From assembly GCA_964594435.1 (NCBI GenBank), contig CAZQMH010000001.1:1-39888 (forward strand): a stretch of DNA of 39,888 nt, in the 5' to 3' direction. Position numbers and translations under genes: made by a program. The notes under the pieces are model-generated. The model was not told where the DNA came from, did no database searches, and worked only from the letters and a program-made list of their open reading frames with translations. Position 1 is the stretch's first letter, and the number at the start of each line of letters is the position of its first letter. Of the stretch, positions 7,448-39,823 are shown piece after piece. Source of the stretch: an uncultured Alcanivoracaceae bacterium. GTDB lineage: Bacteria; Pseudomonadota; Gammaproteobacteria; Xanthomonadales; Marinicellaceae.

Positions 7448-9894
7448 TATTTGCTAGCTGTTTTTTTGCTTGCTTTTTTCTTTGTTGTCTTGTTTGCTGT
7501 TTTTTTCTTGCTAACTTTTTTCTTGCTTACCTTTTTGCTTACCTTTTTGCTTGTTTTCTTTTTTGTCTTCTTTTTTGTGGCTTTTTTCTTGGTTTTCTTT
7601 TTGAAACGAGATTTTTTATCTGGAGCTTTGGCTAAAATTTCTATGCAATCTTCATGGCTCAATGTTTTAGGGTCGGTTCCCTTTACAATTTTGCCATTCT
7701 TTTTGCCATCCGTTACATAGGGTCCCCAGCGACCGTTTAAAATTTGGATACCATCATCAAAAGTCGTGATAATGCGATTGGCATCGGCAATTTTCTTTTC
7801 TTTGATGAGTTCCAAGGCCTGTTCTAGGGTTATATCATAAGGAGTAGCAGGAAAATCTTTTTTGATAGAAACAAATTTATTAGCATAACGCACATAAGGT
7901 CCAAATCGACCAATGTTGGTGCTAACTTTTTCGCCCTCATCGGTTTCGCCAAGCTTTCTTGGCAACTTGAACAATTCCATCGCTTCTTCAAAAGTGATTT
8001 TATCCAAGCGTTGCCCTGGTAAAAGACCAGCAAATTGTGGCTTGTCTTCATCATCACGGTGACCAATTTGCACAAAAGAACCGTATTTGCCGACCCGTGC
8101 GGTCACGGGTTTGCCAGTTTTGGGATCGGTTCCCAAAACACGTTGGTATTGGGCTTCTTCGCGACTTACGGATTCTTCCTTGTCATCCAATAAGGCTTTG
8201 AAAGGTTGCCAAAATTGTTTAAGCAAAGGAATCCAGCTTTTCTCTCCGCGTGAAATCGCATCCAAAGCATCCTCAAGGTTAGCAGTGTAAGCGTAATCAA
8301 CGTATTTTTCAAAATGCTTTTCTAAGAAGCGTGAAACAACCTTGCCAACATCGGTTGGAATAAAGCGTTTTTTATCGAGTTCAACATAGTCACGGTTAAG
8401 CAAGGTGCTGATAATTGAGGCATAGGTCGAAGGTCGCCCAATACCATGTTCTTCTAGAGCTTTAACCAAGCTTGCCTCAGAATAACGTGGCGGTGGTTCG
8501 GTGAAGTGTTGTTTGCCGCTGATAGCGACTACTTTGGAGGTGTCACCTTGTTTTAAACGTGGCAGATTATTGCTAATTTGTTTTTTCTTATCATCTTGTC
8601 CTTCTTCATAAACGGTTAAAAACCCTTTTTTGATAACGGTAGAACCTGTTGCTCTAAAGACATGTGCATTGCCAAATTCATAATCGGCAGAAACGGTGCC
8701 AATTAAGGCATCGGTCATTTGGCAGGCGAGCGTGCGTTTCCAAATCAAAGAGTAGAGTTTTAGTTGGTCTGTGGCTAAATATTTAGCAATATTTTTAGGA
8801 ATTAATGCCGCATTAACTGGACGAATAGCCTCATGGGCTTCTTGGGCATTTTTTGATTTGCCCTTGTAATAATTGGGTCTTTCAGGGACGAGTTCTTGCC
8901 CAAAAGTCTGTCCAATGGTCTGCCGAATATTTGCTAAAGCATCTTTGGATAGAATCACCGCATCGGTACGCATGTAAGTGATAAGCCCTTGCACACTGCC
9001 ATCAACTGCCATTCCTTCATACAATTGCTGAGCGATTTGCATGGTTTTTCGGGTGGAAAAGCCAAGTTTTCTGGCAGCTTCTTGTTGCAATGTTGAGGTG
9101 ATAAAAGGTGGTGCTGGGTGGCGTTTTCTTTGTTTTTCGGTGAGTTTTGTTACGGTTAAAATCTCACCTGCTTGGGTTTTGAGTTCGGCCAAGACTTTAT
9201 CGACTTGCGGCTTGTTGTTCAAATCAAATTTTTTCAGTTTTTTGCCATCGTATTGAATAAGATTGGCAATAAACTCATGCCGGTCTTTTACCATGGGTGT
9301 GGAAACAGTCCAGTATTCTTTAGGGTTGAAGGCATCAATTTCATCTTCGCGATTAACAATCATACGCAAGGCGGGTGATTGCACACGACCTGCGGATAAA
9401 CCACGCCTGACTTTTTTCCATAACAAAGGTGATAAATTAAAGCCCACAAGGTAATCCAAGGCACGTCTGGCTTGTTGGGCATCAACTAAATCATAGGATA
9501 ATTCACGTGGATTAGCAACCGCTTCTTTGATGGCATTTTTAGTTATTTCACTAAAGACGATACGGTATACATTTTTATCTTTTAAAACTTTGCGTTTTTT
9601 TAAGATTTCAGCCACATGCCATGAAATGGCTTCTCCTTCTCTGTCCAAATCGGTAGCCAGATAGATGGTGTCGGCTTTTTTGGCTTCTCTGACAATGGCA
9701 TCAATGTGTTTTTTGTTGCGGTCAACTTCAACATAAGTCATAGCAAAGTCGTTGTCGGTATCTACGGCTCCCGTTTTGGCAAGTAAGTCACGGATATGCC
9801 CGTAGGATGCTAAAACTTTGTAATCTTTTCCTAAATATTTTTCGATTGTTTTTGATTTTGCCGGTGATTCGACTATTAATAAATTTTTTGCCAT
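7447..9894 (-). CDS. topA: DNA topoisomerase I with cysteine-less C-terminal repeats and a lysine-rich tail
   Basis: Toprim LLIVESPAKSKTIEKYLG, active-site region GLITYMRTDA, C-terminal GRFGPYV / GRWGPYV repeats without C4 zinc ribbons, and a 56-aa tail with 31 Lys. Confidence 0.95.
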   Translation of the reverse strand: MAKNLLIVESPAKSKTIEKYLGKDYKVLASYGHIRDLLAKTGAVDTDNDFAMTYVEVDRNKKHIDAIVREAKKADTIYLATDLDREGEAISWHVAEILKKRKVLKDKNVYRIVFSEITKNAIKEAVANPRELSYDLVDAQQARRALDYLVGFNLSPLLWKKVRRGLSAGRVQSPALRMIVNREDEIDAFNPKEYWTVSTPMVKDRHEFIANLIQYDGKKLKKFDLNNKPQVDKVLAELKTQAGEILTVTKLTEKQRKRHPAPPFITSTLQQEAARKLGFSTRKTMQIAQQLYEGMAVDGSVQGLITYMRTDAVILSKDALANIRQTIGQTFGQELVPERPNYYKGKSKNAQEAHEAIRPVNAALIPKNIAKYLATDQLKLYSLIWKRTLACQMTDALIGTVSADYEFGNAHVFRATGSTVIKKGFLTVYEEGQDDKKKQISNNLPRLKQGDTSKVVAISGKQHFTEPPPRYSEASLVKALEEHGIGRPSTYASIISTLLNRDYVELDKKRFIPTDVGKVVSRFLEKHFEKYVDYAYTANLEDALDAISRGEKSWIPLLKQFWQPFKALLDDKEESVSREEAQYQRVLGTDPKTGKPVTARVGKYGSFVQIGHRDDEDKPQFAGLLPGQRLDKITFEEAMELFKLPRKLGETDEGEKVSTNIGRFGPYVRYANKFVSIKKDFPATPYDITLEQALELIKEKKIADANRIITTFDDGIQILNGRWGPYVTDGKKNGKIVKGTDPKTLSHEDCIEILAKAPDKKSRFKKKTKKKATKKKTKKKTSKKVSKKVSKKKVSKKKTANKTTKKKASKKTASK

Positions 9895-21033: not shown

Positions 21034-21070
21034 AATCCCAAATCCCGATTCTTTATCGGGATTTGGGATT
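21034..21070. repeat. Perfect 16-bp-stem palindrome of the CCCAAATCCCGA repeat family (REP-like)
   Basis: AATCCCAAATCCCGAT-TCTTT-ATCGGGATTTGGGATT, 8 nt beyond the protease stop codon. The same core recurs at 39699, 39812 (inverted) and 34919-34930 (inverted). Confidence 0.8.
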
Positions 21071-34546: not shown

Positions 34547-34554
34547 GATTTTTG
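34547..34554. repeat. Target-site duplication, left copy (GATTTTTG)
   Basis: Identical 8-mer directly abuts both ends of the 132-bp element. Confidence 0.85.
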
Positions 34555-34686
34555 GTAACAACTCACCCCGTCATTCCTGCGTAGGCAGGAATCTCTGTGG
34601 TGAAATGCTTTATATTTACCATATATTGTAATTATTATTTATGAGATTACCGCCTTCGCGGCAATGACGGTAGTGTGAGCAGTTAC
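34555..34686. mobile_element. 132-bp non-autonomous element (MITE) with ~40-bp imperfect terminal inverted repeats, each carrying a GC-rich hairpin
   Basis: Ends GTAACAACTCAC... / ...GTGAGCAGTTAC. Arm hairpins ATTCCTGC-GTAG-GCAGGAAT (34573-34592) and ATTACCGC-CTTC-GCGGCAAT (34646-34665). AT-rich centre, no coding capacity, flanked by an 8-bp direct repeat. Confidence 0.85.
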
Positions 34687-34694
34687 GATTTTTG
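34687..34694. repeat. Target-site duplication, right copy (GATTTTTG)
   Basis: Identical 8-mer directly abuts both ends of the 132-bp element. Confidence 0.85.
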
Positions 34695-34877
34695 TATTAA
34701 TACGTTACTGTATTGGATACCTGTTTTTTGTTGTGCTTCAGCATTTGTTAAAACAAATAATAGAAATAACAACAGTGCGTAATGTTTTGTGATTGTACTC
34801 ATAAAATTGACCTATCGAATTATTGACCCACTTAGTTAAACGACAAATATTCAGAATTAGGACAAAAAGAAAAAACT

Positions 34878-34931
34878 AAATCCACCTGATTGGTGATTAA
34901 GCTTGTTTCACGATTTCACTATCGGGATTTC
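34878..34931. repeat. Degenerate palindromic copy of the CCCAAATCCCGA family overlapping the cca stop; probable cca terminator
   Basis: Minus strand AAATCCCGATAGTGAAATCG (34930..34911) matches 39703-39721 (AAATCCCGATAGTGAATCG) apart from one inserted A. The opposing arm AAATCCACCTGATTGGTGATT (34878-34898) forms an imperfect hairpin and is followed on the minus strand by a T-rich run. Confidence 0.5.
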
Positions 34932-36133
34932 GATTTAATCAATTTAATACGTTGTTGGGTAATTTCATTGCCAAGCTTTTCACCGTGCAAGCCCTTTTTT
35001 ATTAGGGCTTGCACATCTACTGCCGTTGTTGCATCCAAGCATTGAATTAAAAAATTGGCTTGTGGATAAGGTTTGTCGGTCATACCCAGACGACCAGTGG
35101 CGTCGGCCTGGCACGCTTGGGTGAATTTTTTTAAATTTTCTTTTTGCTGGTAAGCTCCAATATTTTGAAATAACTTATGAATGGTTCCTGCTCGCAGTTG
35201 CATCGCTTGGTGGCAATGCAAATGCCAGCGACAGACATTGAGAGCCAGCTTTTTGTGAGTACTTGGGACTTTTAAACGCTCACAAACGGCTTTTACCAAT
35301 GGAATACCAGCGGCTTCGTGCCCGACGTGTGAAGGCAAAATATCTTTGGGTGTCAGTCCTTTTCCTAAATCGTGTGTAAAAACGGCAAAAGCGACAGCGT
35401 TACTTAAATCAGCGGCCTGATTCATCGCCATCATGCAATGAATACCTGTATCAATTTCAGGATGCCATTTTTGCGTTTGCGGAATACCAAATAAGGCATC
35501 AAACTCTGCAAATAAAATTTTTAAAGCACCGCAATCACGCAAGGTTTGCACAAATTCTGCGGGTGTTTTTTCATTAAGTGCCGCCGATAGTTCTTGCCAT
35601 ACTCGTTCTGCCACTAAGGCATCGACTTCACCATTGTCGACCATTTTTTGCATCAATTCATTGGTTTCTTTAGCGACTTTAAAACCCAAATGAGCATACC
35701 GAGCTTTGAATCGAGCGGTTCGTAAAATACGCACAGGGTCTTCAGCAAAAGATTGACTAACATGCCGTAGAATTTTTGCTGCCAAATCTTTTTGTCCATT
35801 ATAGGGGTCGATTATTTGATTGCTTTGGCAATCCAATGCCATGGCATTAATGCTTAAGTCGCGGCGTAGCAGATCTTGTTCGAGCGTCACATTTGGGTCG
35901 GTGTTAAATACAAAGCCATGATAGCCCTTGGCTGTTTTGCGTTCGGTTCGTGCTAATGCGTATTCTTCATGTGTTTTGGGATGCAAAAAAACAGGGAAAT
36001 CTTTGCCAACTGGCTTGTAGCCTTGGGCAAGCATTTGCTCCACCGTTGCCCCAACCACGACATAGTCACGATCTTTGATGGGTAAATCCAGCAGTTTATC
36101 GCGTACCGCTCCGCCAACAAGATAAATTTTCAT
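34919..36133 (-). CDS. cca: Multifunctional CCA-adding tRNA nucleotidyltransferase with HD domain
   Basis: MKIYLVGGAVRDKLLDLPIKDRDYVVVG, RTERK and the HD region FTHDLGK. ATG overlaps the slt stop (ATGA). Confidence 0.95.
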   Translation of the reverse strand: MKIYLVGGAVRDKLLDLPIKDRDYVVVGATVEQMLAQGYKPVGKDFPVFLHPKTHEEYALARTERKTAKGYHGFVFNTDPNVTLEQDLLRRDLSINAMALDCQSNQIIDPYNGQKDLAAKILRHVSQSFAEDPVRILRTARFKARYAHLGFKVAKETNELMQKMVDNGEVDALVAERVWQELSAALNEKTPAEFVQTLRDCGALKILFAEFDALFGIPQTQKWHPEIDTGIHCMMAMNQAADLSNAVAFAVFTHDLGKGLTPKDILPSHVGHEAAGIPLVKAVCERLKVPSTHKKLALNVCRWHLHCHQAMQLRAGTIHKLFQNIGAYQQKENLKKFTQACQADATGRLGMTDKPYPQANFLIQCLDATTAVDVQALIKKGLHGEKLGNEITQQRIKLIKSKSR

Positions 36134-38085
36134 TGTTTACAAACCCCTTTGGTGATTTGGCTGGCAACTTTTTGACTGGGCCAGGCTTTGCTTTGTTGGT
36201 TATTTATTGGCATGGTTGGCAACCAGTAAGAAATACGCTTGGGTGTTTGATGAATAAGCCAATCATAAATAGTGACATTGCTTAAAATTCGGACGATATA
36301 ATCACGGGTTTCACGATAAGGTATGGTTTCAGCCCATACATCTGGCGAGGTTGGAAAATCACGCAACCAATGATGAGCTTTGGTTTCACCTGCATTGTAG
36401 GATGCCAATGCTAAAACAGGATGATTATTGAACCGTTCAAACAATTCTTTTTGGTAAAAAATGCCCAGTTGTAAATTAAAATCCGCCTCATGTAATTGTT
36501 GTTTGCCCCAATAATTTAATTTCAGTTTTTTACTCAAGCGTTCGGCGGTTGGATGGATAAGCTGCATCAAACCTCGGGCATCAGCTCGTGATATGGCATC
36601 GGTTTGCCAGGCACTTTCTTGGGTGATTATTGACATAATCCACTGTGGTAATAAATTATATTTTTGCGAAATTTTTGTAATCTCATCTTTGTAACCCAAA
36701 GGATAACGTAAGCGGTAATTGTTTTTTAAATCCAGAGCCGCCATGATGGCTGCTGTTTTATTGTACCATCCTTTTTGCAAAGCAATCTCGGCCAAGGCTC
36801 TTTTTTGCCCTCTTTCCAAACTTCGGTACCCTATCATCCACTCTTTTCTTGCCAAATGAATCATGTTTAAGGCAAATAATTCAAAGGCACGTTGTGTAGC
36901 AATTGGCAATGTTGTTATTGGTTTTGGTGCAATATCATTACTGCAAAATTGGTACGGAAATTGCATATGGTCGGCGGCTAAAAACCCATAATAGTTCGTC
37001 TTTTTAGCCAGTTTGGCAAATATTTTTTTTGCCAATGCTTTTTTATGAATTTTGGCAGCACTGCGAGCCAACCAGTACTGCCAATTATCTTTGTAACGTT
37101 GGAAATCAGGCATGGCTGCTATGCTTTTGTAAACTTTTCGCCATTTTTTATGGTACAAATAATAACGAACTTTCCATGCATGAATTTGTGCATCGTGCAT
37201 CGTTGGTGGCAGTTTATTCATGGCATCAATAGTAAATGGCAAATAGTCGGTTGCCGCATAAAGAGCAATCGTGCGTTCGACTTGTGCTCGTTGCTTGGCT
37301 GTGAATTGGAAATGTTTCTTTAATTCTTTCCATGTTTTGTGCATATAATCTGGGCGTTTGCTCGCCAAGGCTTTTGCTTATAGATAAATCAATTCCCGAT
37401 TTTGGGTATTATCTGGCCACGACAGTGCCTGCTTAAAGGTTTTGCTTGGTGCTTGCATAAGTTTGATGGCACGTTTTATCCACGCTGGCTTTTTCTGCAT
37501 TTTATTGGCTAAATAGCGAGCGGTTGAAGCATTGTTGACCTTAAATGCCAGCTTTATTCTTTTTTCCAACTTGCTATCATTTAGCTGCCCTTGTTTTTGC
37601 CACCAAGTAAAAACAGGGTCGCAAGCTTTGGGCAAGGATAATCCGTTCATCCAGGTATTTTCAATGGCTTGGTTCAGTCCTTTTAGTTGTTTTGTCGCTA
37701 TTCGGGCTTGCAAATACCAACAGTGCTTGGTTGATGAGCTTTTATTGTTCTTATACCGAGCCAAATATTCTTGCCATTGCCCTTGTTTGCCTAATTCATA
37801 AAGCAACATAGAGGCCAAGACTTTATTAAGCGGGCTTTGGGGATGAGCTTTTTTGAAATCTTCGATTGCTTGGATGGGGAGCTTGTTAATACTCGCCTTC
37901 AGTAAAGCAAAATCAAGATAATGCTGTAAAATATAGCCTTTTAGTTTTATTTTGGCTGTTTTTAGGGCGTTTTCATCCCCTTTTAATGCCAGTTTGTACG
38001 CTTTTTTGAAGAGCAATTGTTCTTGCGTTAAAGCATGAATAACACCAGAAAAAAGTAACAAGAGAATAACATAAATATTTTTCAC
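36130..38085 (-). pseudogene. slt: Soluble lytic murein transglycosylase (Slt70-type) interrupted by a single in-frame TAA (fragments 37378..38085 and 36130..37368)
   Basis: The N-terminal fragment has a signal peptide (MKNIYVILLLLFSGVIHA) and U-domain-like helical repeats. The C-terminal fragment carries the catalytic motif ITQESAWQ...ARGLMQL...YNAG. Both are in the same frame, separated by TAA at 37378-37380, and similarity to E. coli Slt70 runs through the stop (..NRELIYL*AKALASKRPD..). Confidence 0.85.
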
Positions 38086-39698: not shown

Positions 39699-39823
39699 CC
39701 CAAATCCCGATAGTGAATCGCAATGAAGAGTGCAAGCAGTTGATGCACATAAGAAATTGACTAAACCTAAATCTTGGAGCTTGGTGATTGAGATTTTTGG
39801 TGATTTCTATCTCGGGATTTGGG
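39699..39823. repeat. 125-bp element bounded by ~24-bp imperfect inverted repeats of the CCCAAATCCCGA family (MITE-like or structured RNA)
   Basis: Left arm CCCAAATCCCGATAGTGAATCGC (39699-). Right arm, reverse complement, CCCAAATCCCGAGATAGAAATCACC (-39823). About 80 bp of non-coding spacer, located upstream of rdgC. Confidence 0.6.

Follow-up and report, generated by a model that had tools for sequence, protein, structure and literature searches.

A probable miniature transposon with CGTC-1 REP hairpins interrupts an FG-GAP-repeat protein gene in an uncultured gammaproteobacterium

The closest described relatives of the repeat analysed here are the CGTC-1 REPs, which are defined by a CGTC tag, an 8-bp stem starting with AT, a 4-nt loop and a short tail (Di Nocera et al., 2013, PMC3733652). 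They have been equated with the dRS3 repeats of Neisseria and the RPE-6 repeats of Rickettsia and mostly occur as inverted dimers (PMC3733652), with the two units of a pair lying 20-100 bp apart (PMC3733652, PMC11893778). In Halothiobacillus neapolitanus, every CGTC-1 dimer is contained within a 41-bp palindrome (PMC3733652), which provides a precedent for a larger unit surrounding the dimer. No transposase gene has been associated with CGTC repeats, which "apparently lack a dedicated transposase" (PMC3733652). More recently, a 28-nt motif termed NTS (consensus CGTCATTCCCGCGMAVGCGGGAATCYRG) was defined around about half of the dRS3 repeats (Ssn paper, 2025, PMC11893778). It is bound, in single-stranded DNA only, by the GIY-YIG nuclease SsnA of Neisseria, which cuts 3 nt upstream and whose recognition depends on sequence as well as shape; ssnA genes are themselves often flanked by NTS copies in an IS-like layout (PMC11893778).

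Neisseria, Rickettsia, Wolbachia and many free-living proteobacteria carry dRS3/NTS and other CGTC-tagged REPs in large numbers. These repeats have been linked with genome plasticity and, from 2025 on, also with a new class of nucleases that cut single strands site-specifically. They have been orphan repeats since 2013, and their spread is left without an explanation in both studies (PMC3733652, PMC11893778). Neither 'target site' nor 'duplication' occurs in the main text of PMC3733652, and the accessible portions of the two papers make no mention of the 12-nt terminus described below or of a target duplication.

Here, we describe a pair of such hairpins in a 39,888-nt stretch of DNA from an uncultured Alcanivoracaceae bacterium (assembly GCA_964594435.1, contig CAZQMH010000001.1, positions 1 to 39,888), referred to as the window throughout. 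The segment that carries them is very probably a non-autonomous transposon (MITE) that has inserted into an FG-GAP-repeat protein gene with duplication of 8 bp of target sequence. It comprises the following parts:

34547..34554, no strand: target-site duplication, left copy, GATTTTTG; 8 bp, the rule in this family
34555..34686, no strand: probable MITE of the 'GTAAC-CGTC' family (a name coined here); 132 bp, non-coding
34555..34595, plus strand: left arm or 'short-spacer' end, consisting of the 12-nt terminus GTAACAACTCAC, a 2-nt spacer and the CGTC-tagged hairpin module CGTCATTCCTGCGTAGGCAGGAATCTC
34573..34592, plus strand: left hairpin, ATTCCTGC-GTAG-GCAGGAAT; perfect 8-bp stem, 4-nt loop
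34643..34686, minus strand: right arm or 'long-spacer' end, consisting of GTAACTGCTCAC, a 5-nt spacer and CGTCATTGCCGCGAAGGCGGTAATCTC (read on the minus strand)
34646..34665, minus strand: right hairpin, ATTACCGC-CTTC-GCGGCAAT; seven Watson-Crick pairs plus one G.T (A.C on the plus strand), 4-nt loop
34687..34694, no strand: target-site duplication, right copy, GATTTTTG; perfect 8-bp match to the left copy

The 132-bp element starts with GTAACAACTCAC on the left and finishes with GTGAGCAGTTAC on the right, and the terminal 12 nt of its two ends agree at 10 of 12 positions. When aligned in inverted orientation with gaps, the arms, each about 44 bp long, show 34 matches, 7 mismatches and 3 gap columns over 44 columns, in line with the imperfect terminal inverted repeats of about 40 bp that a preliminary description of this DNA had proposed; the element coordinates and the two GATTTTTG copies given there were likewise found to be correct. 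The same description attributed a hairpin with an 8-bp stem to each arm, which holds without restriction for the left arm but needs to be amended for the right one, whose stem includes one non-Watson-Crick pair. Both arms display the CGTC tag, the 8-bp stem starting with AT (with one G.T in the right stem), the 4-nt loop and the short tail. By their form, the arm hairpins are CGTC-1 REPs, also known as dRS3 or NTS. The left stem (CCT/AGG) differs from the family consensus by a compensated C-G to T-A change. The 24-nt hairpin motif has an expected count of 0.00 in the shuffled window, and the element folds far better than its shuffled versions (z = -5.9 as DNA and -7.2 as RNA), with one long stem of -48.6 kcal/mol predicted for its transcribed form. 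No ORF of at least 30 aa lies wholly within the 132 bp, the element occurs only once in the 39.9-kb window, and an Rfam search of the whole window matched no family.

The element lies within the first of two adjacent genes for secreted proteins, at codon 39/40 of a gene encoding a secreted FG-GAP-repeat protein:

34819..34846, minus strand: promoter-like site 5' of the severed fragment, upstream of the native ATG; a consensus match only
34683..34802, minus strand: severed 5' fragment of the gene; 39 codons, encoding a Sec-type signal peptide plus 16 residues
33391..34554, minus strand: 3' part of the disrupted FG-GAP-repeat (PF14312) gene; still open, 387 codons
32179..33381, minus strand: intact downstream paralogue; 400 aa, with its own signal peptide, PF14312, 24% identity

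The 39-codon ORF (34802..34683, minus strand) encodes MSTITKHYALLLFLLFVLTNAEAQQKTGIQYSNVLIQKS and ends in ...CAA AAA TCG TAA, with the TAA supplied by the GTAAC end of the element, as had been recognised in the preliminary description. Deletion of the element and one duplicate in silico yielded the in-frame 423-aa precursor predicted there (...VLIQKS|KIQEPN...), with a restored junction that reads ...AACGTATTAATACAAAAATCTAAAATACAAGAACC.... As the insertion adds 140 bp, it shifts the reading frame in addition to introducing a stop codon. Translation from the native start runs into the TAA directly after the duplicate, so that its product consists only of the signal peptide and 16 residues. Gene callers place the start of the 3' part at a GTG within the element (34566), giving a 391-aa product. 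This GTG, located in the element end, is the sole in-frame start available to the 3' part; it has no convincing ribosome-binding site and sits inside the predicted -48.6 kcal/mol stem of the transcribed element, and no promoter-like site facing the truncated gene was detected inside the element. The 387-codon remainder has no export signal, which, together with the position of its only start codon within the predicted stem, suggests that the protein has most likely been lost; inactivation or mislocalisation had been proposed in the preliminary description. The paralogue begins 9 nt past the stop of the disrupted gene, a gap that had been noted before, and the long untranslated mRNA upstream may lower its expression by polarity. 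The gene disruption in itself is an ordinary consequence of transposition.

Full-length homologues support the view that the gene was once intact. The nearest relatives of the restored protein (P0002, 421 aa, 57% identity; P0003, 435 aa, 56%; P0004, 423 aa, 40%) share a hydrophobic N-terminal leader with the downstream paralogue, and all four proteins align without gaps across the LIQKS|KIQEPN junction, bearing out the earlier proposal of a clean insertion. The P0002 locus (L044) shows the same two-gene layout without the element. The insertion itself was also recovered from a second assembly, JGI contig Ga0256841_1037571 (= NCBI JALSQT010000394.1, MAG GCA_026985155.1). Over 2419 bp, this contig and the window are distinguished by 4 SNPs, 3 of them synonymous and 1 leading to A21V in the leader, with 0 located within the element. 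Its presence in two independent assemblies excludes an artefact of a single assembly. The two strains both retain an open 3' part (387 codons), an indication of a recent event; this could reflect either a very recent insertion or residual use.

These data bear on another explanation, in which the segment is not mobile at all: it could have arisen as an error of assembly, or it could have belonged to the locus for a long time as conserved sequence, for instance as a regulatory hairpin separating two genes. Consistent with this idea, an empty-site allele of the same species was not recovered: none was present among 5.8 billion protein clusters, in which the closest intact homologue is 57% identical and the sole cluster exceeding 57% identity to the restored protein is the truncated 391-aa product itself. 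However, the insertion is found in two independent assemblies, the homologues have one continuous gene across the site, and near-identical copies occur at unrelated sites with duplications of their own. We therefore consider a non-mobile segment exceedingly improbable.

The genomic surroundings show the features of an ordinary gammaproteobacterial chromosome, which is what the window is: its genes include those for pyruvate kinase, KdtA, topoisomerase I, PEP synthase, RdgC, an Slt-type transglycosylase and the CCA-adding enzyme, and it contains no transposase gene. Judged by their record names (TAG_MAG, Alvin dive 4281-140), the related contigs stem from deep-sea vent metagenomes. Two further irregularities were observed in the window. 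The gene for the Slt-type lytic transglycosylase is split by a single in-frame TAA (37378-37380) into ORFs of 235 aa and 412 aa (37378-38085 and 36130-37368, minus strand); possible reasons are a nonsense mutation, decay to a pseudogene or an error in sequencing. In addition, a degenerate 11-16-bp tandem repeat that is T-rich on the plus strand occupies positions 7448-7602, where the minus-strand topoisomerase I gene has its 3' end.

The window also contains members of a second small repeat family, characterised by the inverted ends CCCAAATCCCGATA. A 125-bp element with both ends is located at 39699-39823, a 31-bp palindrome lies between two convergent genes at 21037-21067, and a single end is found at the 3' end of the CCA-enzyme gene (34920-34933), about 120 bp upstream of the disrupted gene. 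Relatives of this second repeat are present in loci L044, L050, L052, L056, L062, L033, L041 and L071. In L052, the duplicated target of a GTAAC element (CCCAAATC) resembles the CCCAAATC start of the second repeat's end.

Copies of the 132-bp element exist well beyond the window. A scan with the pattern GTAACNNCTCACN{1,4}CCGTCATTNCNGCG, retaining one genome per species, returned 42 loci, and a metagenome scan added 21 further family loci. After deduplication, these comprised 47 distinct complete elements, 56-323 bp and mostly 130-165 bp in length, from more than 10 MAGs. Hosts include a copy-rich MAG of Thiohalomonas denitrificans (BL5_bin.3), several MAGs of Alcanivoracaceae and further gammaproteobacterial MAGs, among them Lysobacterales and Dyella, as well as one Parcubacteria MAG and one Elusimicrobia MAG. 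The members assigned to candidate phyla (L031 7382-7591 and L040 6338-6481 in the Parcubacteria MAG; L016 5120-5213 in the Elusimicrobia MAG), two of which have perfect 8-bp duplications, could result from cross-phylum transfer or from mis-binned contigs. Viral contigs contained no family copy. Most members are intergenic or lie a few codons from the end of an ORF, and the insertion in the window represents the clearest intragenic case. Some elements are nested: L050 (1480-1681) contains one GTAAC element nested in another, and L038 (1833-2155) harbours a different, tiny inverted-repeat element with the ends CCTTTGCATAACTAT inside a GTAAC element.

The flanks of these elements argue strongly for insertion with an 8-bp duplication. 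Among the 47 elements, the 8-bp flanks are identical at 8/8 positions in 22 cases, at 7/8 positions in 10 and at 6/8 positions in 6, whereas no other length between 2 and 12 gives identical flanks in more than 3 of the 47. Only n = 8 works, as expected from the initial interpretation of the segment as a MITE with an 8-bp target-site duplication. The duplicated sequences are mutually unrelated except for an AT-rich centre. The subfamily of the window element is represented at five or more further sites in the metagenome Ga0256841, which also contains this locus, with 90-99% identity. A lack of copies elsewhere, named in the preliminary description among the observations that would refute it, is thereby contradicted; the existence of near-identical copies also implies that movement has been recent. 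The closest copy (L070, 957-1088) is 98.5% identical, with flanks (GTTTAAAC / GTTGATTT) that match at only 4/8 positions, which could be explained by recombination between two copies or by flank decay. Perfect duplications border the copies in L069 (92% identical; AATCATTG) and L055 (91%; AATAAATT), while those in L065 (99%) and L062 (90%) are cut by a contig end and partial, respectively. A 106-bp deletion variant was found in a vent Alcanivoracaceae MAG (L014). The element is thus small and non-coding, with terminal inverted repeats, a duplication of fixed length and many copies at unrelated sites, the combination of traits that characterises a MITE.

Each family end consists of a 12-nt terminus, GTAAC(T/A)(A/G)CTCAC, a spacer of 1-7 nt and one CGTC-1 REP hairpin, giving elements bounded by GTAACTRCTCAC...GTGAGYAGTTAC. 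The hairpin module has the form CGTCATTCCCGCG-NAG-GCGGGAATC, with its CGTC tag pointing outward. The two ends of one element are usually unlike, one combining a short spacer with a CCC/GGG stem and the other a long spacer with an ACC/GGT stem. In an alignment of 34 distinct hairpin modules, 96% of the stem cells were paired, compared with 25-54% in slid registers. At two of the eight positions of the stem, both partners vary, with C-G, A-T, G-C and G.T at one of them and C-G and T-A at the other, and the observed covariation score was reached by 0 of 500 shuffles. These compensatory changes indicate that selection acts on pairing itself.

It is the 12-nt terminus, not the hairpin, that marks the element boundary. 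The bare hairpin is very widespread, occurring in Neisseria, in tandem arrays of Photobacterium, on a Rickettsia plasmid, in Azospirillum and elsewhere. In the plasmid collection, the GTAAC terminus was never matched and only the bare hairpin was found, indicating that the hairpin alone does not define the family; as delimited here from sequence, the family is defined by terminus plus hairpin. An example of the bare hairpin in another setting is provided by plasmid pGJ3-1 of Photobacterium sp. GJ3 (L045, 1121901-1124935), which carries a tandem array of units of about 200 bp, each with two inverted NTS-like hairpins (CGTCATTCCCGCG... and CGTCGTTCCCGCG...). Thus, the same hairpin also resides in satellite-like arrays.

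The resemblance to dRS3 noted in the preliminary description turned out to be real and closer than claimed. The family consensus arm, CGTCATTCCCGCGAAGGCGGGAATCCAG, is identical to the published 28-nt NTS consensus, as are the arms of many relatives. The arms of the window element deviate from this consensus by 5 and 4 mismatches and failed to match the degenerate SRM pattern, with the criterion for an NTS match in PMC11893778 allowing 1 mismatch. Given the exact agreement of the family consensus, the window copy can be viewed as a diverged member of a qualifying family, namely as an AT-shifted variant with compensated stem changes.

The identity of the consensus arm with the motif bound by SsnA, together with the frequent IS-like arrangement of ssnA genes between NTS copies (PMC11893778), raises the question of whether an Ssn-type GIY-YIG single-strand nuclease that recognises NTS hairpins could move or excise the element, with NTS-ssnA-NTS as the autonomous form of the element. 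Yet, the SsnA cut position falls inside the element, between the 12-nt terminus and the hairpin, rather than at the boundaries of the duplication, and a nuclease alone leaves the 8-bp duplication unexplained. Moreover, all 47 of the 47 complete elements (56-323 bp) are too short to contain an ssn gene, the fetched loci include a single ssn-like gene, in L016, which lacks family ends on its flanks, and the 39.9-kb window contains no ssn-like ORF (GIY-YIG, cd10448). The window arms are in addition 5 and 4 positions off the NTS and fail the SRM pattern, and recognition is sequence-specific (PMC11893778). Movement by an Ssn-type nuclease is therefore very unlikely, and transposition of a MITE remains by far the better reading.

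The duplications, constant in their length of exactly 8 bp and unrelated in sequence, show that the elements enter targets cut with an 8-bp stagger, a signature of DDE-type transposases. Such an enzyme, supplied in trans, would bind the 12-nt termini and integrate the element over this cut. The hairpins, kept by selection on pairing, would in this process probably serve as a structural or recognition module rather than as the transposase cleavage site; candidate roles include that of a site for an Ssn-type single-strand nuclease or of an RNA hairpin. With regard to the enzyme, other families with 8-bp duplications (IS6, ISL3, IS256, IS1595 and IS1; ISfinder tables) have ends that begin with GG, and we know of no IS66 ends that carry REP hairpins. 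By analogy of ends and duplication length, an IS66-like transposase would nevertheless be the best candidate, albeit a tentative one: IS66 inverted repeats start with GTAAGCG, in some cases GTAACCG, and are associated with 8-bp direct repeats (PMC11946415, PMC12888890). The ORFs of all fetched loci contained no IS66-type transposase motifs, and neither about 490 kb of fetched DNA nor the plasmids or viral contigs yielded an autonomous element ending in these termini, so that the transposase is inferred only. Short-read MAGs often fail to assemble IS copies. Several of the family matches sit at contig ends.

Two inverted REP-type hairpins separated by a short spacer also form the layout of a REPIN. 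This similarity suggests a different route, the one proposed for GTAG REPs, in which an HUH tyrosine transposase (RAYT or TIRYT) moves the REP doublet as a single-stranded intermediate. One half-element indeed lies about 110 bp from an HUH-type gene remnant (L057/L053). However, no GTAAC-hairpin accompanies this HUH gene in its other copies (L071-L074), which makes the adjacency in L057 look accidental. Furthermore, the family shows exact 8-bp duplications, unlike in IS200/IS605- or RAYT-type movement, which to our knowledge generates no target duplication. In the literature, no tyrosine-transposase gene flanked by CGTC repeats was reported (PMC3733652). Taken together, an HUH-driven mechanism appears improbable to a high degree, and we continue to favour the insertion of a MITE at a staggered cut.

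The HUH (RAYT/TIRYT-like) gene itself was rejected as a candidate, with its location in L057 being attributed to chance adjacency in which one element truncated the other (P0014-P0016, L071-L074). Its remnants (L057 1900-2066, corresponding to L053 1-135; L072 4001-4930; L074) show the motifs SNHYHIVL and YVDLNPIRA and are frameshifted in every copy seen. The remnant in L057 abuts a truncated GTAAC-hairpin element, whereas the other copies have their own conserved 5' flank. Searches of Pfam and NCBIfam with the HUH fragments gave no match because the fragments are too short.

Dimers of CGTC-1/NTS hairpins that have fixed IS-like ends and transpose with 8-bp duplications apparently go beyond what is known. 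No description of such a family was found in the searchable literature, in which strings of the 12-nt terminus gave chance primer matches only and nothing relevant linked MITEs with GIY-YIG proteins or SsnA. The insertions offered by this family are dated and clean: the sequence before insertion is known, the 8-bp duplications are exact and there are copies that are nearly identical. The family thereby provides one concrete route for the spread of CGTC/NTS repeats, in which a hairpin dimer with IS-like ends on either side transposes, and this makes the question of their spread testable. It is tempting to speculate, as a broader reading that we regard as rather unlikely in its entirety, that orphan CGTC-1/NTS dimers propagate, in at least one large family, as target-duplicating transposons with fixed GTAACTRCTCAC ends across gammaproteobacteria and possibly candidate phyla, and that Ssn nucleases could act on them as a means of control or defence. 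A cut 3 nt upstream of the hairpin would fall into the variable spacer and could thus, in single-stranded DNA, detach from the element the end to which the transposase binds. If Ssn nucleases do sever element ends in this manner, they would constitute a control or defence system against these MITEs.

The GTAAC-CGTC family can be compared with several known systems. A parallel case is that of the Correia elements (NEMIS) of Neisseria, which are small and abundant, have inverted ends, can be transcribed, fold into long hairpins and sometimes affect neighbouring genes. Correia elements, however, duplicate TA, have ends unrelated to the GTAAC termini and represent a repeat different from dRS3/NTS. 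NEMIS have been listed among MITEs (PMC3733652). With REPINs and their RAYTs, the GTAAC-CGTC family shares a doublet of inverted REP hairpins as the mobile unit, whereas the GTAG type, the linkage to RAYT and the lack of a target duplication that distinguish REPINs do not apply here. IS66 elements resemble it in the GTAA(C) start of their ends and in their 8-bp direct repeat, but its termini are unlike the quoted IS66 repeats beyond the first 5 bases. Rickettsia palindromic elements, of which RPE-6 corresponds to CGTC-1, are likewise CGTC-type hairpin repeats that can be intragenic (PMC3733652); in contrast to the insertion described here, which adds 140 bp, shifts the frame and ends translation, they are reported to be in frame and to leave the protein intact. 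The closest match remains that to the CGTC-1/dRS3/NTS dimers, which agree in hairpin form, inverted pairing and the identity of the family consensus with NTS and, in H. neapolitanus, also in the inclusion of the dimer in a larger palindromic unit. What separates the family described here from these dimers are its boundaries, formed by a constant 12-nt terminus and a target duplication of exactly 8 bp.
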